DNA of 64,000 bases, taken from contig CAMSGQ010000015.1 of assembly GCA_947058385.1 (NCBI GenBank), positions 7,692-71,691 on the forward strand, written 5' to 3'. Below, one piece after another: positions 1,689 through 23,904 of the stretch. The notes under the pieces are model-generated. The model was not told where the DNA came from. It did no database searches and saw nothing but the letters and a program-made list of their open reading frames with translations. Made by a program: the position numbers and the translations under genes. The DNA is from an uncultured Clostridia bacterium. GTDB lineage: Bacteria > Bacillota > Clostridia > Lachnospirales > Lachnospiraceae. Position 1 is the stretch's first letter. Each line of letters begins with the position of its first letter.

Positions 1689-2366
1689 TTACTTTAATGC
1701 ACCATACTTTTGATAATAAGCATCAATTGCTGTTTTTATAGTATCGTCGATAATAATCGTTCCTTTATATGGACGATTATAAAGATACTCCATCACTTCT
1801 TCCATCGTTACAATTGCTGTTGTCTCCATCTCATACGTATCCTGAATTTCTGCTAGTGCACTCTTTTCTCCATGCCCACGTTCCATTCTATCTACAGAAA
1901 CTACCAAACCAATAATTTGAATATCGCCTTGTGCTTTTACAATTGGAAGTGTTTCCTGAATTGAAGTTCCAGCTGTTGTAACATCTTCAATAATCAAAAC
2001 ACGATCTCCATCACAGATTGGACTTCCCAGTAAAATCCCAGTATCTCCATGATCTTTTGCTTCTTTTCGGTTGGAACAATAACGAATATCTACCTGATAC
2101 AATTCACTAATTTCCATTGCTGTTGCAACAGAAAGTGGAATCCCCTTATAAGCTGGTCCAAACAATATATCAAACTCCAATCCAAACTTATCTTGAATCG
2201 CCTTAGCATAAAATTCACCTAATTTTTTTAACTGTGCACCTGTACGATAAAATCCCGTATTAATAAAAAATGGCGTCTTTCTACCACTCTTAGTAACAAA
2301 ATCACCAAATTTCAAAACGCCACAATCCACCATAAATCCGATAAAATCCTGCTTATACTGTTCCAT
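1689..2366 (-). CDS. pyrE: orotate phosphoribosyltransferase
   Basis: Near-colinear with E. coli-type PyrE: VLKFGDFVTKSGRKTPFFINTGF, LFGPAYKGIPL, CSNRKEAKDHGDTG, PRPP motif VLIIEDVTTAGTSI. Confidence 0.9.
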   Translation of the reverse strand: MEQYKQDFIGFMVDCGVLKFGDFVTKSGRKTPFFINTGFYRTGAQLKKLGEFYAKAIQDKFGLEFDILFGPAYKGIPLSVATAMEISELYQVDIRYCSNRKEAKDHGDTGILLGSPICDGDRVLIIEDVTTAGTSIQETLPIVKAQGDIQIIGLVVSVDRMERGHGEKSALAEIQDTYEMETTAIVTMEEVMEYLYNRPYKGTIIIDDTIKTAIDAYYQKYGALK

Positions 2367-2530
2367 ATGTCTATACTCCTTATTTTTTTGGCTTTTAACA
2401 GCCTATTTTACATTTTTATGTTATTTTACTTTCTATTATTTTTATTGGTTTGCAATTTCATCGTTTTTTAGTATAGCATTATCTTTTTTAATATTCAAGG
2501 GTTATTAATAACTTCTTTCATAATTTTACC

Positions 2531-3310
2531 TTATTTTAAAATATTCATTTCTTTTTCATAAGCATTACAAATCTCTTCTGCCTTTCCCTGCATCATAATT
2601 TCCCCCTTCTTCATCCATACTGCATGGGTGCAAAGCTTTTTTACTTCATTCAAATTATGGGAAACATACAATAATGTAGTTCCCCTTTTTAGCATCTCAT
2701 TCATCCGTTCTTCACATTTTTTACGAAATTTCATATCTCCCACTGCTAATATTTCATCTACAATTAAAATTTCTGGCTTTACCATAGTAGCAACTGCAAA
2801 TCCCAACCTAGCTTTCATACCAGAAGAATAATTTTTAATTGGGGAATCTAAAAAATCTTCTAACTCTGCAAATGCTACAATTTCATCAAAATGTTCTTTC
2901 ATATATTTTTCTGTATGCCCTAACACACAGCCATTTAAAAATATATTTTCACGTGCAGTCATGTTTCCATCCAACCCTGCCCCTAGTTCAATCAAAGGTG
3001 CCACACTGCCATTGACTTGAATCTTTCCCCGATATGGTTTTATAATTCCACTAATTGCCTTTAGTAAAGTTGATTTCCCTGAACCATTTGCGCCAATAAT
3101 TCCCCAAGCTTCCCCAGTATAAACCTGAAAACTAACATCTTTTACTGCAAGAAACTCCTGAAATAAAAGTTCCTTTTTTATCACCTTTATGATATATTCT
3201 TTTAAGTTATCTATTTTTTGATTTGCCAAATTAAATCGAATTGTCACATGACTGACATCAATTTTAACCGAATGATTTCTCATCTTTTTCCCTCCATACA
3301 ATCTTAGCAC
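2531..3310 (-). CDS. ABC transporter ATP-binding protein, TagH/Wzt-like polysaccharide/teichoic acid exporter
   Basis: Walker A GANGSGKSTLLK, signature YSSGMKARL, Walker B ILIVDEILAVGD; adjacent ABC-2 permease. Confidence 0.8.
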   Translation of the reverse strand: MLRLYGGKKMRNHSVKIDVSHVTIRFNLANQKIDNLKEYIIKVIKKELLFQEFLAVKDVSFQVYTGEAWGIIGANGSGKSTLLKAISGIIKPYRGKIQVNGSVAPLIELGAGLDGNMTARENIFLNGCVLGHTEKYMKEHFDEIVAFAELEDFLDSPIKNYSSGMKARLGFAVATMVKPEILIVDEILAVGDMKFRKKCEERMNEMLKRGTTLLYVSHNLNEVKKLCTHAVWMKKGEIMMQGKAEEICNAYEKEMNILK

Positions 3311-3311
3311 T

Positions 3312-4100
3312 TTAGATATATAAAATAAATTTATCTTGATTTCTTAAAAAAGAAAAAACTCCAATTCCAAGCATAAGAACAGAAGTAACACATCCTGCAA
3401 GAATAATTAAATTTCCAGGTATCCTACCATAATACATTAAGTCTCGAAACTGTCCAATATAAAAATACATAGGATTGAAATGTTTAATAAACCATTGCAT
3501 TTTATCCGATAAAGAATCAATTGGATAAAAAATTGGAGTTAAATACATCCAAGCAGTTGTTAATGCCCCATAAATGTATTGAATATCTCGAAAAAATACA
3601 TTTGCTTGTGCTAAAAATAAACCAAGTCCAAGGCAAAAAATATACAACTGAATAGCGACAAATGGTACCAATAAATTATACCAGCTAAACTGTGCTTTTG
3701 TTACAATCATAACAACAAGTAATGCTCCAATGGAAAAGAAAAAATCCACTAATCCACTTGTTATCTTAGAAAAAGTAAAAATATATTTTGGGACATAAGC
3801 TTTCTTTAAAAATGCAGCATTTCCATCAATTGAAGATAGGGCTTGATGTGTTGACTGATTCATAAAATTAAACATCACTTGTCCAGTAAACAAATACACT
3901 GGAAAATTTTCTATATCTCTTTGAAACATAGTGGAAAATACAACTGTCATTACTATCATAATCATAAGTGGATTTAAAATACTCCATAAATATCCTAATA
4001 CACTTCTTCGATATTTCAATTTAATATCTCTTAAAACTAATTGTTTCAACAGATCTTTATAACGTAAAAAAATTAAAATACGTTTATAATACTTTTCCAT
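3312..4100 (-). CDS. ABC-2 type transporter permease (TagG/Wzm-like)
   Basis: Start moved to MEKYYKR (internal M of 312-aa ORF) giving typical ~260 aa; 6 TM; N-term LVLRDIKLKYRRSVLGYLWSILNP typical of Wzm/TagG. Confidence 0.7.
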   Translation of the reverse strand: MEKYYKRILIFLRYKDLLKQLVLRDIKLKYRRSVLGYLWSILNPLMIMIVMTVVFSTMFQRDIENFPVYLFTGQVMFNFMNQSTHQALSSIDGNAAFLKKAYVPKYIFTFSKITSGLVDFFFSIGALLVVMIVTKAQFSWYNLLVPFVAIQLYIFCLGLGLFLAQANVFFRDIQYIYGALTTAWMYLTPIFYPIDSLSDKMQWFIKHFNPMYFYIGQFRDLMYYGRIPGNLIILAGCVTSVLMLGIGVFSFLRNQDKFILYI

Positions 4101-4177
4101 AAAATTCAACAAGCACAACAACTTTAGCAGAAGAAGTGCTATCCTCCTTTTCCTTTGCATTACAACTAATTGACGCC

Positions 4178-5269
4178 TTATCCAATCCTTTGAAGCATAT
4201 ATTTTTTTGTTGGTTTTTCTATCATAAGATTCATCATAACAGCAAAGCAAATGTTTAAAATAAAAGAAAAAAGAAAAATAAGAAAAAAATTTTTCTCTTT
4301 TATTATCCCATTTTTTATTCCTAAAGTCACAATTCGATTCGCTAATGTCTGTGTCAAATAAAAACTATATTGTAAAGAAGATGCCCACTGAACCAGTTTA
4401 CCCCCCCAAGTTGTACGAGATTTAAAATTAAATTGTGTCATAAATAAAATCAAAATTCCAATATATGGAACTACAATAAAATTATATTGTGTATAATTTC
4501 CTTTTAAAATCTCAAAATACTGATTTACTGCCACAATAAAAAATATCGTAGCAATACTTACTGTAAAACAATTACACCATCTCTCTTTTTCTTTTCTTTT
4601 CAAAAACCATTCAGCCAATAACATCCCTATTACAAATTCTGGTAATCGTATTAAAAAATTAGTATAGTAACTTGCCATACTGCCACCAAACAAAAACTGC
4701 ATCAATCCATGATAAACACTAAGAAAATAACAAATTGCAAAACCAACAATAAAACAATATTTTTTATGTACTACTATTTTCTTTAAAATTATACTAATTA
4801 ATGGAAACAAAAAATATAAAAAAACCATTACTGATATAAACCAAGTTCCCCCATTTCCACAAATATTAAACGTGGTTGGAAAAAAAGTTTGTAAACAAAA
4901 AAATTCACATCCAAGTATAGCAAATACCTTTGGCAATGTATCAGGAAAAGATAATCGAAAACTAAAAATAATCATCAAAAACACAAAATAGGCAGGATAA
5001 ATACAAAAGAATCTTTTCCTATAAAACTTCTTTAAATTATTTTTATCTGAAAAATCGGTTTCTCGATAATGATATTGTAATACAAAACCAGATAACATAA
5101 AAAATCCTACCATAAAGATTGCTCCAACTGAAATAACACGATCCACCATTTCAATTACTATATTTCCATTTAAATGAATACTAAAATGAATGGAAAGATG
5201 AAAAAATGCTATTATCAATGCAAAAATAATTCTCAGCAAATCTAATCCTATCAATTTTTTCATAAACAA
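4178..5269 (-). CDS. acyltransferase family 3 (membrane O-acyltransferase)
   Basis: 363 aa polytopic; N-term LDLLRIIFALIIAFFHLSIH characteristic of Acyl_transf_3. Confidence 0.65.
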   Translation of the reverse strand: MFMKKLIGLDLLRIIFALIIAFFHLSIHFSIHLNGNIVIEMVDRVISVGAIFMVGFFMLSGFVLQYHYRETDFSDKNNLKKFYRKRFFCIYPAYFVFLMIIFSFRLSFPDTLPKVFAILGCEFFCLQTFFPTTFNICGNGGTWFISVMVFLYFLFPLISIILKKIVVHKKYCFIVGFAICYFLSVYHGLMQFLFGGSMASYYTNFLIRLPEFVIGMLLAEWFLKRKEKERWCNCFTVSIATIFFIVAVNQYFEILKGNYTQYNFIVVPYIGILILFMTQFNFKSRTTWGGKLVQWASSLQYSFYLTQTLANRIVTLGIKNGIIKEKNFFLIFLFSFILNICFAVMMNLMIEKPTKKYMLQRIG

Positions 5270-7944
5270 AAATCCCTCTCTTTTATTCCAATTTTCTCAC
5301 AGACACTACTATATATATTTTGCGCTGCATTTTTATGATTTGGAGGAATTAAATATTTTTGTATAAATAAACTTCTCTCTTGATATTTTATATCATTTCC
5401 ATTTATTACAACATCCTCAATAAAAGAACAAATTTCCTCTTTTAAATTCTCTTTTGCATGATACAATATTTCATAATTTTCCTTTCCGTATTCATTCATC
5501 CACACTCTAGCATTTCTTCCCACTGTAAACAACGCTGGTTTATTTACAGCCGTATATTCTCCTATAAATGAAATACTATCAAATATCATTGCATCTGATG
5601 TTAAAAATAAATCAATAAATTCTCCCTCTTCTAACTGTCCATTTTCAAGTTCTGCCCATTTCTGATAATATTCTTCCATTGTTTCCTTTCCCCACCGTTT
5701 TTCCAACTTTGGTTTTAACATAGGATGGGGCTTAAATGCGATCTGTATCTCATCTTTATATTTCTCTGCTATCTCAAACATAATATTTTTTAATTCATAA
5801 AAAGCATCAAATTGATATTGCCAAGCAGGAGTATTATCTTCATGATGGGGTGCCCATATAATACGCTTTTTTCTTTTTTCACTTTTTTTCCATCCATCAA
5901 CGGGCTGATATCCTTTTTCCCAAATTACATCTAATTTTGGAGAACCTGATACAATTACATTTTTTCCTTTATTGCTCATTTCTTGTTCTGCAATTTTTTT
6001 ATGAATTGGTGTGGCTAAAAAAAATCCATCTACCAGATTATTTAATTCAAAATTCATTGCTCGTTTATCCTCCGCCACATAAAACCCGTATGGTACAAGA
6101 AATGTCATTTTATCAGAAAACTTGGTAATATAGAAATTATTTTGAAAATGAGGCTTCCAAAATTTTGTATAAAATATAATGTCTGGATTAAGCTCCTTTC
6201 TAACATCGAAAAATCTATCTGTTTCCTTATCATATCCTTTTACTACTCGATATCCTTGTCTTTCTAACTCTTGATAGGTCTCTTCATGATAAGCAATCAT
6301 TGCTTCTTTTCCCTGTGAAACAAACGGTTTTATAACTACAAACGGCTTAAACTCTTTGCTTTGTTCAAATATATGATAGAGTTCTCCAAACAACCAACAA
6401 CTAATTCGAGATACAAAAAGACAGACAACAATTTTTTCCCCTTTTTTCCACTTATCCACTAAAGCTTTATGGCTTTTCTTTTTTCTTATAGAAAAATCCC
6501 TCTTTCCCTTTTCTATCCGCAATTTTTGCCAAACTTTTTTCCATTTATTTTTCAATAAAAATTCGATCCGTAAATTTTCATTTACCAATCGAAGCTTTGC
6601 TATATGGATTCGAAACAAATATAGTCCATATTCTCCTTTTCCTTTTTTTGAAACCCGAACCAAATCATGACGGCTAATTGCAAATTTTTTTTTCTTTAAA
6701 ACAGGATTTTTCTTTCCTACTTTTTTATTAGCAGGATCTTCATCCGAAAATAATTCCAATTCTCCTAGTTCATCACTATGTAAATCCAATAAGGTAAACT
6801 CTTCTAATCTACGTAACACATGCCGAAACCGATACCCTTGTTCAATCGCCTCATTTGAAGCGGAAACAATTTCACAACGTCTGCTTTCATCTGATAGTAA
6901 AATCTTACACTTCTCTCTTAATTCCATTTCAGAAGAAAAGGTAGGTAACTTTACTTTAGGAAAATAATTACGAATATCTGCCTTTTCCTCTGTCATCAAA
7001 CATGCTCCAGATGCCATAATATCACAAACCCGAAAAGAAAACCCATTTTGCGCTTGGATATGATTAGTACTTAAAGAAATCTTAGAATGATTATAAAAAT
7101 CCTCATTTTCTTTTAAAGTCAAGACAGAAGTTCTATTATAACATAATTCTACTTCTGGAAAATACTTCATACAATCAATATTCCAATAAGCCCCCCTTAT
7201 TTCTAAATCCAAATCAACAATACTTCTTAAATAATTAATTCTCCTTAATCCACTAATTTCATGTGCAGCTCGATTCAAGTCTCCCAAATTAAGTGATTTT
7301 TGTGGTTGCATATGTCCTTGATAAATAATTTCATGACTTGGATAAAAAGGAAGTTCTGTAAATTTTTTAATGACATTTTTTGCTATTTTTATATCTTCTT
7401 CCGAAGGATTTCTCTGCAAAAATTCATGTGAAAAATTATATCCTTTCCATAACCAATTTGTTCCTAAAAAACTAATATTATGTGTTTTTTCTATCTCTAT
7501 ATGTTGAATTTCTGTAAAAAAAGGAATCAAACAGATCTGATTTTCTTTTACCTCAAATATCTCCTGTAACAATTCCTGACCAGCTGTTTGATTTACAACA
7601 AATAAATATCGATCCAAATTTTCTTTCAAAAAATTTTTCCCTTTATACAATAAGGGAGAATCCACATCATATATCACAATTGGACAATCTACAATTTGAG
7701 AAATATCCCAGAAATTATTACAAAATAAAACACATAAATCTGGACAAAACGCAATTAGCTTTTCCTTATACTCATTTGGTATTTGACCCTTAAATTCTCT
7801 TCCAACTGTCTTGTGTTGATAACACAAAACATTATTCCCTGCATCCTGTAACCCTTTTAAAAAAGCTTCAAAAAAAGGAGGCATAGCATTAAAGTCTTCT
7901 TTTCTTCTTCCAAAATTATATAGTGCAATAAATACATTTGCCAT
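5260..7944 (-). CDS. fusion protein: CgeB-like glycosyltransferase domain + CDP-glycerol glycerophosphotransferase (TagF/TagB-like) domain
   Basis: ORF 5260..8046 (928 aa); start probably MANVFIALYNFG at 7944 (avoids overlap with upstream SDR). N-half FSFRVCDIMASGACLMTEE (CgeB/GT1-like); C-half FLVPYGFYVAEDK...IIWAPHHE...FKPHPM (Glyphos_transf-like). Confidence 0.6.
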   Translation of the reverse strand: MANVFIALYNFGRRKEDFNAMPPFFEAFLKGLQDAGNNVLCYQHKTVGREFKGQIPNEYKEKLIAFCPDLCVLFCNNFWDISQIVDCPIVIYDVDSPLLYKGKNFLKENLDRYLFVVNQTAGQELLQEIFEVKENQICLIPFFTEIQHIEIEKTHNISFLGTNWLWKGYNFSHEFLQRNPSEEDIKIAKNVIKKFTELPFYPSHEIIYQGHMQPQKSLNLGDLNRAAHEISGLRRINYLRSIVDLDLEIRGAYWNIDCMKYFPEVELCYNRTSVLTLKENEDFYNHSKISLSTNHIQAQNGFSFRVCDIMASGACLMTEEKADIRNYFPKVKLPTFSSEMELREKCKILLSDESRRCEIVSASNEAIEQGYRFRHVLRRLEEFTLLDLHSDELGELELFSDEDPANKKVGKKNPVLKKKKFAISRHDLVRVSKKGKGEYGLYLFRIHIAKLRLVNENLRIEFLLKNKWKKVWQKLRIEKGKRDFSIRKKKSHKALVDKWKKGEKIVVCLFVSRISCWLFGELYHIFEQSKEFKPFVVIKPFVSQGKEAMIAYHEETYQELERQGYRVVKGYDKETDRFFDVRKELNPDIIFYTKFWKPHFQNNFYITKFSDKMTFLVPYGFYVAEDKRAMNFELNNLVDGFFLATPIHKKIAEQEMSNKGKNVIVSGSPKLDVIWEKGYQPVDGWKKSEKRKKRIIWAPHHEDNTPAWQYQFDAFYELKNIMFEIAEKYKDEIQIAFKPHPMLKPKLEKRWGKETMEEYYQKWAELENGQLEEGEFIDLFLTSDAMIFDSISFIGEYTAVNKPALFTVGRNARVWMNEYGKENYEILYHAKENLKEEICSFIEDVVINGNDIKYQERSLFIQKYLIPPNHKNAAQNIYSSVCEKIGIKERDFCL

Positions 7945-7990
7945 ACAATCCACCTCAAACCAATTATTATTTTTTACTAAAACTTCAAAT

Positions 7991-9058: not shown

Positions 9059-9083
9059 TTTATAGTTTCTCCAATCTTTTCTT

Positions 9084-9794: not shown

Positions 9795-9806
9795 CTTTTT
9801 CTCTCC

Positions 9807-10805: not shown

Positions 10806-10849
10806 AAATAAAATCCTTTCTCTTTTCGTAGGCAAAAATTCTTGGACAA

Positions 10850-11071
10850 TTAGGATACCTTTTTTTGTAATGCACAAATAATTTCTGTAATTGTAGTAAT
10901 TTGAGCAAGTTCCTCCTGCTGAAATAAAATCCCATATTCCTCTTCTAATGCTAAAATAATTTCTATATGATTCATAGACCCCCACATCTTTGGTGTATCC
11001 AAATTTTCAAACAATTCTTTTTTTTCTAATTTTGTTATTTCTGTTATAATTTCAATCACTTTTTCTTTCAT
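10850..11071 (-). CDS. acyl/peptidyl carrier protein (PP-binding)
   Basis: 73 aa; WGSMNHIEIILALEEEYGI resembles carrier-protein Ser motif (DltC/ACP-like). Confidence 0.6.
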   Translation of the reverse strand: MKEKVIEIITEITKLEKKELFENLDTPKMWGSMNHIEIILALEEEYGILFQQEELAQITTITEIICALQKKVS

Positions 11072-17713: not shown

Positions 17714-17733
17714 TTTTCTCCTTACTCTTTTTC

Positions 17734-18078
17734 TTATTTTAAATTCATAAAAAATACTCCTACAATAATAAAAGCACCTCCAATCAAAGAAAAAATAGTA
17801 ACTCTTTCATGAAAATATAAGATTGCAATTAGGATTATCATAATATTTGTAATTCCACCTAAGATAGGATAAATATAGCTTAAATCAAATTTAGAAATAA
17901 CAACTGTATACAATAAAAAACTAATGATATAACAGCAATATCCAATAATAGATGGCAAAGTAAACTTTAAATGAGCAATTTGAATCCATATTTTTAGCCC
18001 TTCCTGACTCCCTATTTTCATAAAAGTGATACCCAATATCGAAAATATTAAATACATCAGACAAAATAGATACTTCAT
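17734..18078 (-). CDS. small 4-TM membrane protein, SMR/EamA/ArnE-ArnF-like (candidate lipid-linked sugar flippase subunit)
   Basis: 114 aa, four hydrophobic helices; lies in a glycosylation module. Confidence 0.45.
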   Translation of the reverse strand: MKYLFCLMYLIFSILGITFMKIGSQEGLKIWIQIAHLKFTLPSIIGYCCYIISFLLYTVVISKFDLSYIYPILGGITNIMIILIAILYFHERVTIFSLIGGAFIIVGVFFMNLK

Positions 18079-18429
18079 TTACATTTTCTCCAATTCTCTT
18101 ACTCTTTTTTCCAATATTGCATGGTTTTGTGTTAAATTTCGAATTCGTTCTGTTTGTTTTGAAACAATTGCTGTAAGTGACATAGAGATTAATAATGTAA
18201 AAAAGATTCCCACTAAAAATAACCCATACATTGGCGTTTCAATTCCGACCAATTTAACAAATATTTCTAAAAAGGAAGGAAACAATACCAACATTCCCAT
18301 AATAAAACCAGAAAACAGCCACAGCAAAATATACTTTAATGCTAACATTTTTTTCTTTATAAAATAAAGAATGCACCAAAAATATAAAATTACTACCCCC
18401 CCAAGCAATACTCTTAAGTAATTTGACAT
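18079..18429 (-). CDS. DUF2304-like small membrane protein with C-terminal coiled coil
   Basis: 116 aa; 3 TM then KQTERIRNLTQNHAILEKRVRELEK; commonly adjacent to GtrB-like GT2. Confidence 0.45.
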   Translation of the reverse strand: MSNYLRVLLGGVVILYFWCILYFIKKKMLALKYILLWLFSGFIMGMLVLFPSFLEIFVKLVGIETPMYGLFLVGIFFTLLISMSLTAIVSKQTERIRNLTQNHAILEKRVRELEKM

Positions 18430-18431
18430 TA

Positions 18432-19130
18432 TTATTTCCTCCTATATGTAAAACAGCAAATTATGATAGCAATAGAAACTTTTATCATATAATAAATGGA
18501 TTTTCTTAAATTAATAGAACTTACTCCATTTTGTCTTTCATGCATCACTACTGGTATTTCTTGTATCCTTGCTCCATTTAGACTAGCTGATACAATTGCT
18601 TCTGGCTCTGGATAATCTGATGGATAATCTGATACATAAAACTGAATGTACTTGTGGTTTACTGCACGAAATCCGCTTGTTACATCCTTTATTTTTGCTC
18701 TACAACATAGTTGAATCAATTTACTTAAAAAAGCAATACCTGCTCTTCTTGTTGTGGAGGATTGAAAGCCCTTTTTTTCAAGAAATCTTGATCCAATTAC
18801 AATATCTGCTTTTCCCTCTAAAATTGGCTGTATCGTTTTTCCTATATATGCTGGATCATGCTGCCCATCTCCATCATGTTGAATTGCAATATCATATCCA
18901 TATTTTAAGGCATATTTATAACCTGTCTGTATTACTCCTCCAATTCCCAAATTAATAGGAAGAGAAATAAAATTATAATTATTTTTTTCGCATACCTCAA
19001 TTGTATTATCCTTTGAGCAATCATTTATAATTAAATAATCTATCTCAGGTATTGATTGTTTTAAATTTTTTACTACACTTTCTATATTCTTACTTTCATT
19101 ATAAGCAGGTATAATTGCTAAAACTTTCAT
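18432..19130 (-). CDS. GT2 polyprenyl-phosphate glycosyltransferase (GtrB/DPM1-like)
   Basis: Start moved to MKVLAIIPAYNESKNI (19130), immediately after upstream stop; LIINDCSKDNT DXD. Confidence 0.7.
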   Translation of the reverse strand: MKVLAIIPAYNESKNIESVVKNLKQSIPEIDYLIINDCSKDNTIEVCEKNNYNFISLPINLGIGGVIQTGYKYALKYGYDIAIQHDGDGQHDPAYIGKTIQPILEGKADIVIGSRFLEKKGFQSSTTRRAGIAFLSKLIQLCCRAKIKDVTSGFRAVNHKYIQFYVSDYPSDYPEPEAIVSASLNGARIQEIPVVMHERQNGVSSINLRKSIYYMIKVSIAIIICCFTYRRK

Positions 19131-21010
19131 TGTACATTCATTCTTTCTTCTAGTTTTTCTTTTTGTTGATGAAAATCGAAAAGTGCATAACATATTAAAA
19201 ATGGTGTAATAGCCATAATTGGTAAAGAATAACGAATACTTCCATTTACAGGGCTTGCCATATTTATTAATAAACATAACAACGCTGGTATAAAAAACAC
19301 CAATTTCCTATAATTTTTATTTGTAAAAATAAAGAATACCGCTAAAATTAATAACCAAGTATAACATGCTGGCCGATAAAGCAAATTTATAATTGGAAGT
19401 TTATATTGAATAGAATCAAAATTTTCAATAAGTTTTCTTCCATCCACTCGGTTATCAAGAAAATAAAAATCAAAATCTCCACGGTTTACATAAGAATAAT
19501 TGGTGGCCATTACATAATTACCAATGCTTGTATAGGGAAGACTATTAAGATAAAAATAGCGATATGTACCATGTAGAAAACTTTCTATATAACAAATAGG
19601 ATGTCGCCAAAGTTGCTTCCACCATACAATAAGATATGCTTTTATTTCCTCTGTTGTATTAAAACGCCGGCTTTTTACTGGATCAGAAATATCTGGATTA
19701 TATAGATTTGCTAAGTTCTCGTAATCTAATACTTTCGAAATAATCTCTTTTTCTTTTTCTGTTACATCATTTGGATATTCCTTTACATATCTTGCAGTTT
19801 GTTGAAATGGAACAGATAATGCTTCTCTTATATTTCCTTCTTGAATTCCAAAAACCGAAAGAAAAATAAAATGAAAGACAGCATAAATACCCAATACTCC
19901 AATTAAACTTTCTAACAAATATTTTCTATTTCTTTTAATAAAAAAAACCATACTCAATAAAGTTGGAACTACAATATAGATTCCGTTATTTCTTAATAAA
20001 CAAACCAATAAAGAAGTCGCTACCACTCCTAAGATATGAAGAAAAGAGAACTTTACCTTTGTTATTTCTATATCCATTAAATAAAGAATCCATAAAAGTA
20101 CCGCTAAATAATAAAGGACATCTTTAATTAATGTAATACTATAAATCTGCCAAATACTAAAAAAAGAAAAATATAATAAGATTCCCATTCTCCATTTCCA
20201 TACAATATTCCATTTTTTTAATAAGCAGATACTGTATGCAATAACAGCTGCTCCCACTAGGCTTTGAAACAAAGAATAGAAAAATATTCCTGCATTATCA
20301 CTCCCCCCTATCCATGTTCCAATTTTAAAAATAATCCCCATTATCACGGTAGAAAATACAGGGTGTATATTGCTCCACTCTATACTTCCAATATAAAAGT
20401 CTAACTGTAAAAATCCATCATAAGTTACAACACCAGGATAGAAATAAAATAAATAAGGAATTCGAAATAAAAAATAACATAAAAATGAGAAAATAAAACA
20501 ATGCTTATCTTTTGTGTTATTTTTTAAACAGTTTGTTTTAATTCTATATTTATTATAAAAAATCGATATAGACAACAAAACCATAGAAAAGAAACAAAAA
20601 TATCCTGCCGCAAACAAAAGGGAAAATATAAAATGTTTTAAATTTGAACTTATAAAAGAGATAGTTCCAGCATCTTTTAAACATTTTCCAATCATCATAA
20701 AAATAGAAAAAATACCAGAAAAAATACAATTTATTTTAGATATCTGCCACATATTCTTTTTTAGAAAAAAGAAATAGCATCCTGCTGTTCCAATCGACAA
20801 GAAAGAAGTCTGTAAATCAGAATTTTGTAACAAATAACAAATCTGTGCTACAGCGGCTACAAGCCAAGAATTACTTTCCCCTATTAGATGCTGATAAGTT
20901 TCTTGCATAAGGTTTTTATAAGGAGTGGTAAACGCTAATCCTGTCAAAATTCCCATAAAAACACATAAAATGACAAGACTGCTTTCTCCCATTCTCCTTT
21001 TTTCTTTCAT
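19127..21010 (-). CDS. polytopic membrane protein, probable GT-C-fold glycosyltransferase (YfhO/Gtr-type-specific-like)
   Basis: More than 12 TM helices with loops; start moved to MKEKRRMGESS (21010) with RBS GGAGAG; follows GtrB-like and small membrane-protein genes. Confidence 0.45.
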   Translation of the reverse strand: MKEKRRMGESSLVILCVFMGILTGLAFTTPYKNLMQETYQHLIGESNSWLVAAVAQICYLLQNSDLQTSFLSIGTAGCYFFFLKKNMWQISKINCIFSGIFSIFMMIGKCLKDAGTISFISSNLKHFIFSLLFAAGYFCFFSMVLLSISIFYNKYRIKTNCLKNNTKDKHCFIFSFLCYFLFRIPYLFYFYPGVVTYDGFLQLDFYIGSIEWSNIHPVFSTVIMGIIFKIGTWIGGSDNAGIFFYSLFQSLVGAAVIAYSICLLKKWNIVWKWRMGILLYFSFFSIWQIYSITLIKDVLYYLAVLLWILYLMDIEITKVKFSFLHILGVVATSLLVCLLRNNGIYIVVPTLLSMVFFIKRNRKYLLESLIGVLGIYAVFHFIFLSVFGIQEGNIREALSVPFQQTARYVKEYPNDVTEKEKEIISKVLDYENLANLYNPDISDPVKSRRFNTTEEIKAYLIVWWKQLWRHPICYIESFLHGTYRYFYLNSLPYTSIGNYVMATNYSYVNRGDFDFYFLDNRVDGRKLIENFDSIQYKLPIINLLYRPACYTWLLILAVFFIFTNKNYRKLVFFIPALLCLLINMASPVNGSIRYSLPIMAITPFLICYALFDFHQQKEKLEERMNVQ

Positions 21011-21181
21011 ATTATTTTCTCTCCTTTCAGAAATTCCTCTTTTGGTACTTTTTATTTTTATACCTCTCAGTACAACCGAAATTTCTTTCTTCTTTGTTTC
21101 TGTCAATTATATGAAACGGGCGGTACTGTACCCTCAAATATCATGTAATACATCATATTCTTATCCATAGTCTCCCTGGAT

Positions 21182-21211
21182 TTTATATTGAACAGTAAAA
21201 ATCACTGTCAA
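21182..21211 (-). promoter_or_regulatory. sigma70-like promoter (TTGACA-N18-TATAAA) for the GT-C/GtrB glycosylation operon, located 30 nt beyond the tnpB-like stop
   Basis: Minus-strand reading TTGACAgtgatttttactgttcaaTATAAAat. Confidence 0.4.
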
Positions 21212-21240
21212 TTTTTATTATAAATAACTCATCTAAATTT

Positions 21241-22452
21241 TTATTCTTTCCTATTTTCTTCTTTATAATAGGATAAAAATCTTTTTCCTACATTTCTAGC
21301 GGTATTTAATCCACTATTTCCTTGATGTCCATTCGGGCATAAAAAAAGCTGTCCTCCATAATAATTTTGACTTGGTATATGTCCTGTATTATAACGTTTA
21401 ATTTTTGCACCACATTCATTACAGCAATCTGAAATATGATAAGTTGGAACACGGCTTACAAGAATCCCCTCTGAAAAAGCCTTATATTTTAAATACCGAA
21501 TGACACGTCTGCCAATCCATTCAAAATTATCCGTTTTTAAATACCCCTTTTTCGAAAAATCAATTGTTTTTTGATAATTAGGAATCACAATTATTGTTAC
21601 TCCATTTGCCTTGCAAAACTCTATTATTCTACGACTTGTTCTGTGTGCATAGAATTGATTTAGATTTTCAATTTTTTTCAAGCAATTCTCTTTTTCTTTT
21701 CCTATTTCTCTTTCCCATTTCCTTTTCCATTTTTTCTTTTTTGCTTTTAATTCCAATCCACCTTGAAAAAACATCGTCTTTTCTAAATCACCATTTTTCC
21801 TTAGAATCGCTCCAACTGCAATACTATTATTTCCTGGAAATGATAAAGCAAGTACTTTTTCTACCTCTTTTATTTGCTCTTTTACAGGATGAATTCCTAC
21901 TATTTGTTTTCGAATTGGTATCTGTAAATATGCCTGTTTTTGACTTGCATCAATAATTGGTGATAATACTTCTACATTCTCTGGTAATTGACGCCCAGTA
22001 AAACGATAACGACTCCATTTCCATTTTTCTTTTGTATAAACTTTTAATAAAATAGAATCTTCTTTTCGCTCTTTATACATTCCTTTATAGTAAACTGGAG
22101 CAGCAAAAAAATTTTCTGCTTTAAATAAAATATTGCTTCTTGCCATACCAATTGCACAATTAATGGCAGCTCTTCTAAAATACAATGGGATTACTGGAAA
22201 ATCAATAAAAGGAAAACTGGCTTTTTCTTTCGCTTTTTGCATCTCCTTCGTTCCTATTGTGGCTACTTCTAATTTACGCATTAAATTAAAATTACTTATT
22301 GTAAGCCACTCTGGATATGTAGTTAATAAATCATAATAATGTTTTACTACTTTGTTATATAAAATTCTTGTTTCAAAAAGCCAATCCAAATGCTTATCAT
22401 AAAAACGAAAACGATAGGTTATTGTGATTGTTCCATTCTTTTCTTCTACCAT
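21241..22452 (-). CDS. TnpB (IS200/IS605 OrfB)-like protein with all three RuvC catalytic residues substituted: candidate nuclease-dead, TldR-like RNA-guided regulator
   Basis: 403 aa; N-term YRFRFY...RILYNKVV (OrfB N-term); RuvC-I position VLALSFPGNNSIAVG lacks Asp; RuvC-II TIIVIPNYQ lacks Glu; zinc-finger CCNECG...CPNGH followed by NSGLNTARNV instead of D.D.NAA.NI. Confidence 0.75.
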   Translation of the reverse strand: MVEEKNGTITITYRFRFYDKHLDWLFETRILYNKVVKHYYDLLTTYPEWLTISNFNLMRKLEVATIGTKEMQKAKEKASFPFIDFPVIPLYFRRAAINCAIGMARSNILFKAENFFAAPVYYKGMYKERKEDSILLKVYTKEKWKWSRYRFTGRQLPENVEVLSPIIDASQKQAYLQIPIRKQIVGIHPVKEQIKEVEKVLALSFPGNNSIAVGAILRKNGDLEKTMFFQGGLELKAKKKKWKRKWEREIGKEKENCLKKIENLNQFYAHRTSRRIIEFCKANGVTIIVIPNYQKTIDFSKKGYLKTDNFEWIGRRVIRYLKYKAFSEGILVSRVPTYHISDCCNECGAKIKRYNTGHIPSQNYYGGQLFLCPNGHQGNSGLNTARNVGKRFLSYYKEENRKE

Positions 22453-22482
22453 ATGAAATTCCTTTTTTAGTTTCCTATTGTT

Positions 22483-22515
22483 ACTCTATGTTTTCATAAA
22501 GTATGCTACTCTATG
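22483..22515. repeat. 29-nt palindromic hairpin element (13-bp stem, 3-nt loop), copy 1, ~30 nt upstream of the tnpB-like start
   Basis: gttttcataaagtaTGCtactctatgaaaac. Confidence 0.7.
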
Positions 22516-22521
22516 AAAACA

Positions 22522-22558
22522 AAAATTCTCCATTAAAAATAGAGAATTTTTGTTTTTT
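22522..22558. terminator. bidirectional terminator-like hairpin (9-bp stem) with flanking A/T tracts
   Basis: aaaattctc-cattaaaaata-gagaatttt followed by tgtttttt. Confidence 0.4.
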
Positions 22559-22568
22559 GACCAAAAAA

Positions 22569-22656
22569 TTGACGATCCATTTCTTATTTTTTCTTTTCTT
22601 TCAATAGAGATTTTGTTATCAAATCAATCCTTGTTTTTGACGATTTTTTTGACGAT
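22569..22656 (+). repeat. three copies of TTGACGAT (two as tandem 13-mer tttttgacgattt) in the tnpB-like/pyrD intergenic region
   Basis: 22569-76, 22637-44, 22649-56. Confidence 0.6.
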
Positions 22657-22910
22657 TTATTTTTATTTAAAAAAACGGGAAAAGGGAAACACTTTTATTT
22701 GAATATTTTTTGAATATAGATTCTTCTAAATTAAGAAACAATAGATAGCACTCTCTGCAAATTATTCGACAATAAATGTCATTGCCAATAAATAATTTTT
22801 GAAAAAAATATAAAGCTTTTTTACTATTTGGAGATTGGAACAACAAAATATCTACTATTTTCCAATCTCCATCAAAAATCGTCATTTCTTTTTACAAAAA
22901 GAATTCTCTC

Positions 22911-22939
22911 TTGACAAATCCCTTAAGAAAGGTTATCAT
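22911..22939 (+). promoter_or_regulatory. near-consensus sigma70 promoter on plus strand (TTGACA-N17-TATCAT) reading into the copy-2 hairpin and antisense to the pyrD 3' end
   Basis: ttgacaaatcccttaagaaaggttatcat; also part of the inverted repeat TTGACA...TGTCAA. Confidence 0.45.
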
Positions 22940-22969
22940 GTCAAACAGAGATATAACCCAATCAAACTT

Positions 22970-23000
22970 ATTTTCATAGAGTAGCATACTCTACGAAAAC
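22970..23000. repeat. 29-nt palindromic hairpin element, copy 2 (2 mismatches to copy 1), immediately after the pyrD stop
   Basis: ttttcatagagtaGCAtactctacgaaaac. Confidence 0.7.
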
Positions 23001-23001
23001 T

Positions 23002-23904
23002 CTATTTTACACATCCTACTAACTCTCCAATCTCATTTACCCCATGTTTTTTCATATACTGTTCTATTCCTTCTATAACTTCCAAAGTAGCAGTAGGACA
23101 AAAGAAATTTGCTGTTCCAACAGAAACTGCTGTCGCACCAGCTAGTATAAATTCTATCGCATCTTCTGCTGTTTGGATTCCTCCCATTCCAATCACGGGA
23201 ATCTTTACTGCATTTGCTGCCTCGTAAACCATACGTACTGCCACTGGTTTTATTGCTGGCCCTGATAAGCCACCTGTCTTATTTGCTAAGGCAAATGTTC
23301 TCTTTTCAATATCAATTTTCATTCCAGTCAATGTATTAATCAAAGACAACGCATCTGCTCCCCCTGCCTCTGCTGCCTTTGCCATATCTGCAATACTAGT
23401 AACATTTGGACTTAATTTCATAATAATTGGCTGTTTTGCACGTTTTTTCAATTCTTTTGTAATCGCTTCTACTGCTTTTGCATCTTGTCCAAAAGCAATT
23501 CCCCCTTCTTTTACATTTGGACAAGAAATATTGATTTCCATTAGATCAATTTCTTCTTCTGCAAGACATTCTACTACTTCACAATAATCTTCTGTTGTCT
23601 TTCCACATACATTTACAATAATCTTTGTATCATATTGTTTTAAAAATGAAATATCTCTCTTTCGAAATACATCGATTCCTGGATTTTGCAGTCCAATTGC
23701 ATTTAACATTCCACCATAAGTTTCCGCAATTCTTGGTGTTGGATTTCCAGGCCACGGTACATTTGCTACCCCTTTTGTCACAACTGCTCCTAATCGATTT
23801 AAATCTACAAAATCACAATATTCTGCTCCCGATCCAAATGTTCCAGAAGCTGTCATAACTGGGTTTTTTAATTCTACACCTGCAATGTTTACTTTCGTAT
23901 TCAT
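23002..23904 (-). CDS. pyrD: dihydroorotate dehydrogenase catalytic subunit (class 1B)
   Basis: MNTKVNIAGVELKNPVMTASGTFG...; FMN-binding TIM barrel motifs. Confidence 0.9.
   Translation of the reverse strand: MNTKVNIAGVELKNPVMTASGTFGSGAEYCDFVDLNRLGAVVTKGVANVPWPGNPTPRIAETYGGMLNAIGLQNPGIDVFRKRDISFLKQYDTKIIVNVCGKTTEDYCEVVECLAEEEIDLMEINISCPNVKEGGIAFGQDAKAVEAITKELKKRAKQPIIMKLSPNVTSIADMAKAAEAGGADALSLINTLTGMKIDIEKRTFALANKTGGLSGPAIKPVAVRMVYEAANAVKIPVIGMGGIQTAEDAIEFILAGATAVSVGTANFFCPTATLEVIEGIEQYMKKHGVNEIGELVGCVK

Follow-up and report, generated by a model that had tools for sequence, protein, structure and literature searches.

In the window, by which we mean the whole 64,000-nt stretch analysed, pyrF-pyrK-pyrD and pyrE are co-oriented (every gene between 600 and 30500 lies on the minus strand), with some 20 kb of glycopolymer genes and a TnpB-like gene between them. 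Why do such genes split the pyr cluster, and what controls them? The answer we favour, with a probability of about 0.85, is that a strain-variable, wall teichoic acid-like island entered between pyrD and pyrE, that it is phase-variable through a promoter switch, and that the empty strains arose by deletion. As a variable island the locus is ordinary; its control module is unusual and widespread.

Gene content of the island and its predicted polymer

Pfam and NCBIfam families match the gene list of the earlier note and add an FkbH-domain protein that had no name there. Its figure of ~18.5 kb agrees with the glycan-gene stretch alone, about 18.6 kb. The genes, all on the minus strand and assigned by Pfam unless stated otherwise, are:

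1689-2366, minus: pyrE, orotate phosphoribosyltransferase (TIGR00336, 154.6 bits against a cutoff of 106.8)
2531-3310, minus: TagH/Wzt-like ABC ATPase (Pfam and NCBIfam, score under equivalog cutoffs)
3312-4250, minus: ABC-2 permease, partner in the ABC exporter (Pfam and NCBIfam, score under equivalog cutoffs)
4178-5269, minus: Acyl_transf_3 membrane acyltransferase
5260-8046, minus: fusion of a CgeB-like glycosyltransferase (Glyco_trans_1_2, PF13524) with a TagF-like Glyphos_transf domain (PF04464), 928 aa
7991-9058, minus: SDR
9084-9794, minus: IspD/TarI-like cytidylyltransferase (NF001183, ribitol-5-P cytidylyltransferase, 157 bits against a cutoff of 166)
9807-10985, minus: GNAT+glyoxalase protein
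10850-11071, minus: ACP-like 73-aa ORF (ACP call made by eye from the translation)
11052-12653, minus: FkbH-domain protein (also TIGR01686 FkbH, 286 bits)
12667-13770, minus: DegT aminotransferase
13767-14174, minus: FdtA 3,4-ketoisomerase
14193-17713, minus: four genes for family-2 glycosyltransferases (GT2)
17734-18429, minus: small SMR/EamA-like membrane protein and DUF2304
18432-19277, minus: fifth GT2 gene
19127-21010, minus: DUF6020, polytopic protein
23002-23904, minus: pyrD
23904-24686, minus: pyrK
24729-25652, minus: pyrF

The island product would be a surface glycopolymer resembling wall teichoic acid. Its chemistry is read from family names, with the TagH, TarI and IspD scores all under the NCBIfam equivalog cutoffs. 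GT2 enzymes and the TagF-like phosphotransferase would assemble the polymer in the cytoplasm, using an activated alditol together with an N-acylated 3-amino-3,6-dideoxyhexose. Export would fall to a TagGH/Wzm-Wzt-type ABC transporter, and outside the membrane the polymer would be O-acylated and glycosylated further. The SDR and the IspD/TarI-like protein are a candidate pair for CDP-alditol synthesis. Two further candidate modules are one for acyl decoration (GNAT+glyoxalase, ACP-like and FkbH proteins, 9807-12653) and one for lipid-linked sugar decoration (SMR-like protein, DUF2304, GT2 and DUF6020, 17734-21010). DUF6020 has zero matches among solved structures, so "GT-C" stays a provisional label, suggested by its neighbours: the GT2 gene here and, in L196, an equivalent GT2 fused to GtrA_DPMS_TM that adjoins DUF6020.

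The island shares with the tag/tar loci of wall teichoic acid (TagGH, TagF, TarIJ) an ABC-2 exporter pair, a Glyphos_transf polymerase domain, and a cytidylyltransferase with a reductase-like SDR. In contrast to those loci, the TagF domain forms a fusion with a CgeB-like glycosyltransferase (closest non-self homologues at 57% identity) and an SDR takes the place of a zinc alcohol dehydrogenase as reductase partner. Within the island we found no TagO, TagA, TagB or LCP genes, and neither a priming transferase nor an LCP ligase; amino-sugar, FkbH/ACP and DUF6020 modules are additional.

The acyltransferase gene holds a poly-G tract at 4401-4407, G7 in the window and G8 in L011. In L011 the called product has 288 aa rather than some 361-363 aa, and L018 and L019 share the 288-aa call.

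Presence, absence and origin of the island

Adjacency of pyrD and pyrE is the ancestral state. The gap between them is under 300 bp in 44 of 59 related Lachnospiraceae genomes from many genera, and 152 bp in the closest relative, the sister species L021, where the pyrD stop is followed after ~25 nt by the conserved pyrE promoter. None of 80 related loci has homologues of island genes adjoining pyrD. Within the species, contigs encoding identical PyrD or PyrE occur both with and without the island: of 22 contigs with the same PyrD, eight carry it, seven have pyrE 630 bp downstream and seven are broken at the repeat; for PyrE, the island is present in 18 of 23 and absent in five. Island G+C is 0.304 against 0.345 in the rest of the window (per-gene Mann-Whitney p = 1e-6), and codon usage is shifted, with a codon-frequency correlation to the flanks of r = 0.943 where baselines reach 0.98-0.99. 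The inserted, variable surface-glycan island proposed in the earlier note is thereby borne out.

Two features locate the island against its flanks:

2572-22973, minus: strict island, 20.4 kb, replaced by a 396-bp relic in same-species island-free contigs (blastn of L002, L003 and L009 against the window)
2470-2498, minus: pyrE promoter-like site, TTGAAT, 17-nt spacer, TATACT, with TG extension (promoter scan; conserved in L021 by alignment)

In the three island-free contigs the flanks are 99.3-99.9% identical to the window, with breakpoints at 22974 and 2571. Their allele stops within the pyrD-side repeat described below, half of which is kept, and lacks 53 nt including the promoter. It then retains ~110 nt at roughly 88-90% identity (87.6% across an 89-nt BLAST match) and the final 40 nt of the ABC-ATPase ORF. 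Because half a repeat and this 3' end are kept, the allele is demonstrably a deletion derivative with relics of both island ends, not a virgin site. The relic is ~10% diverged while the flanks differ by less than 0.5%, which points to a history more complex than one recent deletion, with recombination from a diverged allele.

That the empty allele derives from a deletion would also suit an island ancestral at this place and lost repeatedly, a remnant of old synteny, as would the extra genes between pyrD and pyrE in 13 of the 59 other genomes. Yet the cargo of those 13 expanded gaps is unrelated (0 tblastn matches to the island; inspection by eye shows ORFs for an ATPase, an alcohol dehydrogenase, a MATE transporter, a symporter and a kinase, among others). 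The L021 spacer has no homology to the island ends except for the pyrE promoter, and the nearest homologous cassette, at 56% identity, lies in a different genomic context. With the widespread adjacency and the deviant composition, these observations make ancestry with repeated loss improbable. We favour insertion: in an uncultured Lachnospiraceae lineage, the island would have entered the stretch of at most 25 bp that separates the stop codon of pyrD from the promoter of pyrE, and island-free strains would have arisen later by deletion, leaving relics of both ends. Entry upstream of that conserved promoter-like site leaves pyrE its own promoter, so the split is probably harmless to it.

Variable cassettes between housekeeping genes are familiar from the pneumococcal cps locus (between dexB and aliA) and the E. 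coli O-antigen locus (between galF and gnd). The likeness lies in conserved flanks of >99% identity around a glycan cassette that is low in G+C and varies from strain to strain; such flanks offer homology for cassette replacement by recombination. Unlike in those loci, we see here either the island or a decayed relic, with no alternative cassettes, and the flanks are pyrimidine biosynthesis genes.

An invertible promoter at the head of the island

The elements between the TnpB-like gene and pyrD are:

22490-22522, no strand: IR-R, lox-like palindromic arm beside the TnpB-like gene (conserved upstream of homologues by alignment)
22523-22967, no strand: invertible segment, 445 bp (flipped product in L106; homologous segment inverted between L002 and L003)
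22968-23000, no strand: IR-L, arm beside pyrD (also scores as a terminator-like hairpin after pyrD)
22911-22939, plus: best sigma-70-like promoter in the region, TTGACA, 17-nt spacer, TATCAT (scan, 11/12 matches)

The earlier note took paired palindromic hairpins as marking the pyrD-proximal boundary of an inserted or variable island. The pair is real, but its arms are the inverted repeats of a promoter segment that occurs in both orientations. Over their 33 nt the arms are 91% complementary; no such pair was expected in shuffled sequences. In the window the strong promoter is directed away from the island, and a weaker promoter-like site (22788-22761, 10/12 matches) faces it. Contig L106 is the exact flipped product: the -10 of the promoter adjoins IR-R and reads into the ATG of the TnpB-like gene, the -35 being lost at the contig end. 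The flipped state is represented by this one assembled contig (5 samples), against 22 in the window orientation.

A paralogous switch lies just outside the window, downstream of purD. Its segment is 65-70% identical to the one described here, and the 22911-22939 promoter falls in the best-conserved part common to both. Between L002 and L003 it is inverted (618 nt, 97.4% identity) between collinear flanks. It sits directly upstream of a GT2 cluster, with no TnpB-like gene.

Could the repeats have produced the inversions and the presence/absence alleles as artefacts of assembly? The analysis worked on metagenome-assembled contigs, many of which end at or close to the repeats. However, two mismatches between IR-L and the reverse complement of IR-R leave them no long exact word in common for a chimeric join, and the L106 repeat sequence has exactly the half-sites predicted from a crossover at the repeat centre. 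Moreover, three different modules are inverted independently in assemblies from different studies and assemblers, and island-free contigs, from several samples, extend at least 10 kb on both sides of the junction. An artefact is hardly credible.

Island expression would thus be phase-variable, the 445-bp segment between 31-33-nt lox-like inverted repeats carrying the strong promoter. A tyrosine recombinase encoded elsewhere in the genome would flip the segment in trans; no recombinase gene was found in the 64-kb window. In the window state the promoter faces pyrD and the island would be OFF; when flipped, it would read through the proximal repeat into the TnpB-like gene, the structured RNA and the glycan operon. 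This assignment of ON and OFF is suggested by the consensus promoter match and by homology to the paralogous switch; the weaker site that faces the island in the window state and the promoter-like sequence at 21182-21211 speak against it.

The lox-like switch sites read TTTTCRTAGAG...CTCTATGAAAA.

A nuclease-dead TnpB-like gene and its structured RNA

The flipped promoter would reach the following elements, in order:

21241-22452, minus: TnpB/Cas12f-like gene, intact, nuclease-dead, 403 aa (PDB sequence and family alignments, AlphaFold2, Foldseek)
21182-21211, minus: promoter-like sequence TTGACAGTGA...TATAAA (alignment, by eye; the scan tool did not report it)
21060-21180, minus: structured RNA-like element, omega-RNA-like scaffold (alignments and a covariation test over 84 loci)
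21123-21128 and 21068-21073, minus: RNA helix arms CAGTAC and GTACTG, with tail AGAGGTAT at 21060-21067

The TnpB-like gene had been called degenerate; we find it intact and conserved, and its family heads glycan loci in many Lachnospiraceae. The protein has lost at least two RuvC catalytic residues while retaining the fold: its AlphaFold2 model (pLDDT 84) matches AsCas12f and TnpB in Foldseek with E-values of 1e-14 to 1e-10. Identical copies are indexed in 71 blocks of the sequence collection. Across 202 homologues (29-74% identity), the RuvC-II and RuvC-III positions hold invariant non-catalytic residues and the zinc ribbon is kept. This pattern in the alignments is that of purifying selection for a presumed non-nuclease function. 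The RNA element shows covariation: the paired 6-mer pattern occurs in 72 of 84 loci where 2.0 are expected, with 11 compensatory variants.

Could the gene and hairpins instead be decayed IS200/IS605-type remains, marking a mobile-element insertion at the pyrD-proximal junction? The TnpB/Cas12f fold, the palindromes known at the ends of IS200/IS605 elements, the low island G+C and the split gene in L007 (ORFs of 160 and 177 aa) would agree with this. The intact ORF and its conserved family do not, and both palindromes lie upstream of the gene, bounding a segment that inverts. The island ends also lack tnpA, integrase, target-site duplication and att-like direct repeats, and unrelated glycan loci elsewhere are headed by the same architecture. 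We regard such remains as very improbable and read the gene as part of the switch-controlled module.

TnpB-like nuclease-dead repressors, TldR, are known from fliC-, csrA- and oppF-associated clades (10.1101/2023.11.30.569447, 10.64898/2026.09.22.753285), and dCas12f-sigmaE activators are a related system (PMC13472631). Our family shares with them the TnpB/Cas12f fold, a deteriorated RuvC triad, no transposase association, a new conserved gene neighbourhood, and an RNA scaffold directly downstream with a strongly conserved 3' end. Unlike them, it retains the zinc ribbon and C-terminus, and its neighbourhood is an invertible promoter with glycan genes; a search for a guide target of the RNA found none, and neither guide/target pair nor TAM was identified. 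A search of part of the TldR supplementary dataset gave no match to its signature peptides.

Another reading is that the switch controls the dead TnpB-like gene only, and that protein and RNA repress or modulate a glycan operon with its own constitutive promoter; the window state would then be "regulator OFF" rather than "island OFF". Characterised TldR proteins are indeed repressors (10.1101/2023.11.30.569447). The promoter-like sequence between the TnpB-like stop and the RNA element is conserved in L193 and L194 and would be able to drive the glycan genes whatever the switch state; by eye, L131 and L143 have a promoter-like TTGACC...TA(C/G)TAT after the RNA tail. Yet that internal sequence is missing in L110 and L113, and the lack of a guide target found argues against this reading. 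Furthermore, the paralogous switch directly heads a GT2 cluster, which implies direct promoter control of glycan genes in this genome. We therefore consider a regulator-only switch unlikely, if a tenable alternative, and prefer the promoter reading through into the glycan operon.

Recurrence of the control module

A close precedent for the arrangement is in Bacteroides capsular polysaccharide loci, which, going by PMC11685472 and the reference lists of PMC11602134, have invertible promoters and UpxY/UpxZ as first genes. In both systems an inverted-repeat-flanked promoter lies upstream of a long surface-glycan operon whose first gene or genes are regulatory, not biosynthetic, several such loci occur per genome, and the recombinase can act in trans. 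In the present case the host is a Lachnospiraceae Firmicute, and the segment is bounded by palindromic, lox-like repeats (TCG-N7...N7'-CGA). Some loci encode a tyrosine recombinase inside the segment, and the first gene is a dead TnpB/Cas12f-like gene with a structured RNA instead of a NusG paralogue.

Within the Clostridia, the RecV-type tyrosine-recombinase switches of Clostridioides difficile (cwpV, flgB, cmrRST) likewise have short inverted repeats round a small regulatory segment upstream of surface-structure genes, and one recombinase serves several switches in trans. They differ in repeat sequence, have no TnpB-like gene, and carry a terminator-forming leader where the segment here carries a promoter. 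We found no description in the literature of a flippable promoter, a dead TnpB/Cas12f-like gene and a structured RNA together at sugar-polymer loci.

The module recurs at glycan loci in various gut Lachnospiraceae. Those of the homologues (29-74% identity) show the same architecture, with the inverted-repeat pair upstream of the ATG in 41 of 67. In those 41 the end of the proximal arm is 18-61 nt from the ATG, except in L110 and L112, where the distance is 117 nt. Glycan genes are present in all ten neighbourhoods inspected, and in nine directly downstream of the TnpB-like gene; in the exception, L108, the glycan genes are upstream and an uncharacterised ORF follows downstream. Some invertible segments contain a tyrosine recombinase gene: those of L151, L155, L139 and L180 encode Phage_integrase-family recombinases, and in L156, L174, L178 and L181 the 2.8-kb L151 segment has the opposite orientation.

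The island at the pyrD-pyrE junction

All genes from about 600 to 30500 of the window lie on the minus strand. Searches with Pfam and NCBIfam agree with the gene list of the earlier note, in which a glycopolymer locus splits the pyr cluster; the remainder of the window outside the island holds housekeeping genes.

Genes of the island (window 2572-22973) and of its pyr flanks, in transcription order.
24729-25652, minus: pyrF (Pfam), upstream side of the island
23904-24686, minus: pyrK (Pfam), upstream side of the island
23002-23904, minus: pyrD (Pfam), upstream side of the island
21241-22452, minus: TnpB-like gene, first gene of the island
19127-21010, minus: DUF6020 gene, second gene of the island
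17734-19277, minus: GT2 gene, DUF2304 gene and small SMR-like membrane protein
14193-17713, minus: four further GT2 genes
12667-14174, minus: FdtA and DegT
11052-12653, minus: FkbH-domain protein (TIGR01686, 286 bits)
10850-11071, minus: ACP-like ORF of 73 aa
9807-10985, minus: GNAT-glyoxalase protein
9084-9794, minus: IspD/TarI-like cytidylyltransferase
7991-9058, minus: SDR
5260-8046, minus: fusion of a CgeB-like glycosyltransferase with a TagF-like domain, 928 aa
4178-5269, minus: Acyl_transf_3
2531-4250, minus: ABC-2 permease with a TagH/Wzt-like ATPase, last genes of the island before pyrE
1689-2366, minus: pyrE (TIGR00336, 154.6 bits for a cutoff of 106.8), downstream side of the island

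Related genomes were compared through a PyrD scan with one genome per species, yielding 80 loci, 59 of which hold both pyrD and pyrE. On PyrD sequence the organism is placed as an uncultured Lachnospiraceae, with its closest relative, a sister species (locus L021; L-numbers are contigs and loci compared with the window), at 88% PyrD identity. The gap between pyrD and pyrE is below 300 bp in 44 of the 59 loci and 152 bp in the closest relative, and the order pyrF-pyrK-pyrD-pyrE-VanZ is conserved across related loci; the two genes are thus ancestrally adjacent, as the earlier note had supposed. None of the 80 loci has a homologue of the island adjoining pyrD. Aligned with the window, the ancestral spacer of the closest relative consists of the pyrD stop codon, ~25 nt and then a conserved pyrE promoter-like site (TTGAAT, 17-nt spacer, TATACT; window 2498-2470). 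The alignment places the entry of the island within those 25 nt, with pyrE retaining its own promoter-like site.

At this ancestrally closed junction, the island is variable within the species. Among the 22 contigs with an identical PyrD, 8 carry the island, 7 have pyrE 630 bp downstream of pyrD and 7 end at the pyrD-side repeat of the switch described below; an identical PyrE is found with the island in 18 contigs and without it in 5. The strain-to-strain variability proposed for the interval is therefore real. When island-free contigs are compared with the window by blastn, the breakpoints fall at 22974 and 2571, between flanks that are 99.3-99.9% identical, and a 396-bp filler stands in place of 20.4 kb.

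Composition sets the island apart as well. Its G+C content is 0.304 versus 0.345 for the rest of the window (per-gene test, p = 1e-6), and codon frequencies of island and flanks correlate at 0.943, compared with 0.98-0.99 within each set. For the TagF fusion, the closest homologues reach only 57% identity. Another organism carries a cassette of almost the same genes, at 56% identity, in a different genomic context (L196). We discarded an integrase-mediated island, as there is no integrase and no direct repeats bracket 2572-22973; the pyrD stop codon is on one side of the island and the promoter-like site of pyrE on the other. An IS-borne island was dropped too, in view of the missing tnpA and flanking direct repeats. 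Variable glycan cassettes between housekeeping genes are well known, and taken alone this one is ordinary.

The pyrD-pyrE junction appears to be a recurrent insertion site in Lachnospiraceae. It holds 1.5-8.8 kb of unrelated genes in 13 of the 59 genomes, and the gap in L036 is 855 bp; the expanded or widened gaps are those of L036, L037, L042, L043, L065, L067, L075, L077, L084, L090, L092, L093, L094 and L096. By eye, their cargo includes an AAA ATPase, an iron alcohol dehydrogenase, an NlpC/P60 protein, a MATE transporter, an M20 amidohydrolase, a sodium:alanine symporter and a histidine kinase.

An invertible segment with a putative promoter ahead of the island

Two 33-nt repeat arms, 22490-22522 on the TnpB-like side and 22968-23000 on the pyrD side, are 91% complementary and stand 445 nt apart; none are expected by chance. 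Each is made of two half-sites of 11-13 nt, paired as in lox or FRT sites, and their asymmetric centres, TGC and GCA, establish that they are inverted relative to each other. The pattern of the repeat site in the window species is TTTTCRTAGAG-N7-CTCTATGAAAA. The best-matching sigma-70-like site in 21000-23100 (TTGACA, 17-nt spacer, TATCAT; 11/12 consensus matches) lies on the plus strand at 22911-22939, inside the segment and near one arm, in the stretch best conserved with a paralogous switch. In the window this site is directed at pyrD, away from the island.

The flipped junction is present in one contig, L106, while 22 other contigs covering the region have the window orientation. L106 occurs in 5 samples and has a length of 27.9 kb, equal to that of contigs spanning the island. 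It opens with window 22928-22970 in plus orientation, followed by the repeat and then by window 22522 downwards, so that the TATCAT box, ~35 nt ahead of the repeat, is directed into the TnpB-like ATG. In the repeat of L106, the inner half-site is the one expected for a crossover at the repeat centre. We considered a chimeric assembly as the source of L106 and dropped it, since the junction sequence fits recombination at that centre. The switch thus exists in two orientations, and the "paired palindromic hairpins" that the earlier note took for marks of the island boundary bound an invertible segment with a promoter-like site. Where this site stands in the segment leads us to infer that the window orientation is the OFF state for the island.

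No site-specific recombinase is encoded in the window, where all ORFs of at least 120 aa are assigned to other families. Inside the invertible segment, a 72-aa ORF called at 22667-22885 is probably not a gene: it matches no family, and the conserved promoter-like stretch lies partly within it. The invertible segments also contain the direct-repeat motifs CGTCA-N7-8-GGTCA and CGTCAA (window 22555-22577 and 22630-22655; 20300-20410 in L002, an island-free contig), which are conserved in the window, its paralogue and two TnpB-like homologue loci, L193 and L194, and may be accessory or arm-type recombinase-binding sites.

The entire 549-bp spacer is 65-70% identical to the one between purD and a second GT2 cluster, just past window coordinate 1. 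This paralogous switch inverts as well: 618 nt between 42-nt repeats are inverted, at 97.4% identity, between the otherwise collinear island-free contigs L002 and L003. The segment, ~610 bp long (L002 19876-20485), follows purD and heads the second GT2 cluster directly, with no TnpB-like gene; the sister species shares a conserved part of it (L021 11580-11679). The adjoining spacer holds only short ORFs of 43-80 aa, none a recombinase.

The switch also bears on the origin of the island-free allele. Downstream of pyrD, this allele equals the window sequence as far as the middle of the first palindrome. It lacks the next 53 nt, which comprise the second half of the palindrome and the promoter-like site of the switch; past this gap, ~110 nt can be aligned at roughly 88-90% (87.6% over an 89-nt BLAST match) before the similarity decays. 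At the other end, the last 40 nt of the ABC-ATPase ORF are kept, stop codon included. By these remnants the island-free allele is a deletion derivative. Divergence is much greater in the relic than in the flanks, and the probable source of the allele is therefore an already diverged form of the island rather than a recent clean excision.

The TnpB-like protein

A database search returned 202 homologues of the TnpB-like protein, 400-450 aa long, in Lachnospiraceae. In phmmer alignments to Cas12f/TnpB structures, the position of the RuvC-II glutamate is taken by proline (Pro291; IIVIPNY versus IQMEDL) and that of the RuvC-III aspartate by glycine (NSGLNTARNV versus NADYNAARNI). Across homologues, the latter column holds Gly, Ser or Ala within the motif GNSxLNTAxN. 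In the window's clade, the RuvC-I region, assigned by eye, has the sequence FPGNN. Among aligned homologues with 41-74% identity, VVPNY and GNSxLNTAxN are kept invariant or nearly so, with no change at the Cys and His residues of the zinc ribbon. The earlier note had called the gene degenerate; its ORF is intact, and the motifs at the former RuvC-II and RuvC-III positions are conserved among homologues. The gene is intact and conserved and, judged from these residues, nuclease-dead.

The AlphaFold2 model of the protein (pLDDT 84.1, pTM 0.69) matches AsCas12f in Foldseek with E = 1.6e-14 and TM 0.57-0.62, ISDra2 TnpB with E = 1.4e-10, and also other Cas12f proteins, ISFba1 TnpB and a dCas12f.

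An IS200/IS605 transposon was set aside as an identity for the gene. It disagrees with the lack of tnpA, the single copy in the window and the position of both palindromes on one side of the gene, and the substituted RuvC-II and RuvC-III residues disagree with the catalytically competent TnpB of such an element. What we find are several hallmarks of TldR proteins: a TnpB/Cas12f fold, at least two of the three RuvC D-E-D residues replaced and the replacements conserved in the clade, no association with a transposase, a new conserved neighbourhood, and a scaffold-like RNA element downstream of the gene.

In another contig of the same species (L007 6233-7444), the TnpB-like gene is split into two ORFs of 160 and 177 aa, by either occasional inactivation or an assembly error.

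A structured RNA downstream of the TnpB-like gene

The 230-nt spacer 3' of the TnpB-like stop codon is more conserved than the protein itself. The blocks GGGTACAG(T/C)ACCGCC(C/T)GTT and GTTGT(A/G)CTGAGAGGTATAAA are common to loci whose proteins are only 45% identical. Between homologues we recognize one pattern: a 6-mer followed by C(G/A)CC and, 30-220 nt further on, its exact reverse complement followed by the conserved tail (G/A/C)(A/G)AG(T/G)T(A/T)T. It is found in 72 of 84 homologue loci, compared with a mean of 2.0 and a maximum of 6 for shuffled sequences. Eleven distinct 6-mers occupy the helix, each with its own exact complement (GAATAC, GAGCAC, TAGCAC, GAATAT, GAACAC, GGATAC, CAGCAC, CAGTAC, CATCAC, CAGTAT and GGATAT): the covariation is strong. 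This complementary 6-mer test with its shuffling control was used in place of RNAalifold, whose consensus for five sequences was weak (-10.8 kcal/mol) and did not include the long-range helix.

In the window, the helix arms lie at 21123-21128 and 21068-21073 and the tail ends at 21060; the predicted 3' end of the scaffold is ...AGAGGTAT. The position of the RNA and its conserved 3' end agree with omega-RNA and TldR guide scaffolds (10.1101/2023.11.30.569447). Past the tail, the sequence is A-rich and runs into the DUF6020 ribosome-binding site.

Rfam gave no match at E ≤ 1 in window 1-30000, be it to an omega-RNA family, a PyrR site or a T-box. Guides may be only 9-16 nt long. The 3' region of the TnpB-like gene (21330-20990) was compared with ~84 kb of the same genome, made up of the window plus some 20 kb next to it; the matches were no longer than 14-18 nt, with E ≥ 0.17. 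For 36 distinct homologue loci, the 22-nt stretch past the tail was compared with its own locus, where the exact matches, of 10-12 nt, had no consistent position. All these matches are at chance level, and neither comparison yielded a convincing guide target.

A conserved promoter-like sequence at 21182-21211, after the TnpB-like stop codon, points to a less likely alternative, in which the switch would govern the TnpB-like regulator rather than the glycan operon. In the reading that we prefer, the flipped promoter would serve both.

Recurrence of the module

A metagenome scan with the alignment of the TnpB-like family led to 80 loci, of which 67, having at least 700 nt upstream, were analysed. 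A strict regular expression for the window repeat recovers close relatives only, and each locus was instead searched for inverted repeats of any sequence. Of the 67 loci, 41 have such a pair, 17-27 nt long and with at least 95% identity. The proximal arm ends 18-61 nt before the ATG (117 nt in the homologue loci L110 and L112), the arms are palindromes with the common form TCG-N7...N7'-CGA, and the segments between them measure 106 to 2753 nt. Assemblies often break just upstream of TnpB-like homologues, as expected for invertible repeats.

In some loci the segment carries its own recombinase. Tyrosine recombinases with Phage_integrase and SAM-like N-terminal domains lie in the long segments of L151 (3600-4814), L155, L139 (2021-3130) and L180. 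L156, L174, L178 and L181 have the 2.8-kb segment of L151 in the opposite orientation, at 99.5% identity. The same recombinase-carrying segment (L151 2166-4961) is missing from L166, which keeps a single repeat, and the same repeats enclose different cargo in L155, L159, L165 and L167.

Glycan genes occur in all ten TnpB-like neighbourhoods inspected, directly downstream in nine. They include GT2 or GT4 genes with ABC exporters, CapD-like dehydratases, Fkp, DegT and ManC. In the locus L108, the sugar-nucleotide genes are upstream and the downstream ORF, of 513 aa, is uncharacterised. The order of repeats, dead TnpB-like gene, structured RNA and glycan genes is conserved. In one other species, the module follows purD, the place of the paralogous switch in the window's genome. 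Homologues at 29-74% identity come mostly from human-gut metagenomes. The control module is unusual and widespread.

A TnpB-like and glycan locus, 99.5% identical in L110 and L111, has purD as its neighbour in one contig and an unrelated adh_short gene in the other, with a breakpoint near 4611, close to the distal repeat; the difference may stem from recombination between switches at different loci or from a strain rearrangement. The cassette of L196 homologous to the island (56% identity) has no TnpB-like gene. There, a 192-aa ORF of the Phage_integrase family (2131-2709) stands between two divergent glycan operons, which may represent a different kind of switch.

Proposed glycopolymer pathway and mechanism

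The exporter pair matches PF01061 and PF00005, with the TagH/Wzt models as best NCBIfam matches, below their equivalog cutoffs. The Glyphos_transf domain is found with E = 2.8e-9, and the TarI-like model scores 157 bits for a cutoff of 166, its partner being an SDR. Neither DUF6020 nor the TagF fusion matches a solved structure. A priming transferase of the TagO/WecA type and an LCP ligase are absent from both island and window.

We propose that the enzyme acting on the 445-bp segment is a tyrosine recombinase with its gene elsewhere. Once flipped, the promoter would transcribe the TnpB-like gene, the RNA and the operon. The product would be an ABC-exported, teichoic-acid-like polymer with alditol phosphate and an N-acylated 3-amino-3,6-dideoxyhexose, O-acylated by Acyl_transf_3 and glycosylated outside the membrane via GT2, the small membrane proteins and DUF6020. 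Priming and ligation enzymes would be supplied from elsewhere in the genome.

Adjoining FdtA and DegT, the FkbH-domain protein, the 73-aa ACP-like ORF and the GNAT-glyoxalase protein (9807-12653) form a trio that recurs in the L196 cassette, which suggests an unusual N-acyl group on the amino sugar, for instance a glycerate-derived one. A poly-G tract at 4401-4407 in Acyl_transf_3 is G7 in the window, leaving a 363-aa ORF intact; it is G8 in L011, with a called product of 288 aa, and the contigs L018 and L019 have the same 288-aa call and one gap. The tract may represent either a homopolymer sequencing error or another phase switch, of the slipped-strand type, acting on O-acylation.

Possible role of the ribonucleoprotein

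By analogy with TldR and dCas12f systems, the TnpB-like protein may be an RNA-guided regulator. We give a probability of roughly one in three (0.35) to the reading that the dead TnpB/Cas12f-like protein and its RNA constitute a new clade of TldR-like RNA-guided regulators wired to a DNA-inversion switch. A flip would then turn on the regulator together with its glycan operon, and the ribonucleoprotein would act on DNA or RNA in one of three candidate roles. It could ensure that, of the several phase-variable glycan loci in a Lachnospiraceae genome, only one is expressed at a time, and so be a functional counterpart of UpxY/UpxZ in Bacteroides; it could act on the leader of its own operon; or it could bias the switch itself.

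Gut Bacteroides are well known for their phase-variable capsules, which shape phage resistance and immune recognition. To our knowledge, they are far less known in Lachnospiraceae, which make up a large share of the human and animal gut flora. The window provides a concrete case of a probably phase-variable glycan locus in this family, checkable against sequence.

Both components of the module have precedents. Invertible promoters ahead of glycan loci are well known, Bacteroides being the best-known case (PMC11685472, PMC11602134). Nuclease-dead TnpB derivatives include fliC-, csrA- and oppF-associated repressors (10.1101/2023.11.30.569447, 10.64898/2026.09.22.753285), and dead Cas12f derivatives include sigma-E-linked activators (PMC13472631). 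Our literature search returned no paper in which a TnpB-like protein is tied to polysaccharide loci or an invertible promoter, and none on invertons at Lachnospiraceae glycan loci; the TldR papers mention neither glycan loci nor inversion. In the part of the TldR dataset that was examined, no signature peptides of the window's TnpB-like family occur. The module adds a new neighbourhood, between a switch and glycan genes, to those in which exapted TnpB proteins are found. It offers a specific, testable link between DNA inversion and an exapted RNA-guided protein, joining two regulatory principles so far studied apart.

Other features of the window

The same Rfam search (window 1-30000, E ≤ 1) finds no PyrR-binding leader before pyrF or pyrE and no T-box ahead of the TrpRS/TyrRS-family gene at 27805-28953. 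At 30780-35024, an 811-aa protein with an MVP_shoulder (vault-like) domain, seldom met in bacteria, adjoins a 596-aa PilM/FtsA/MreB-like ATPase.
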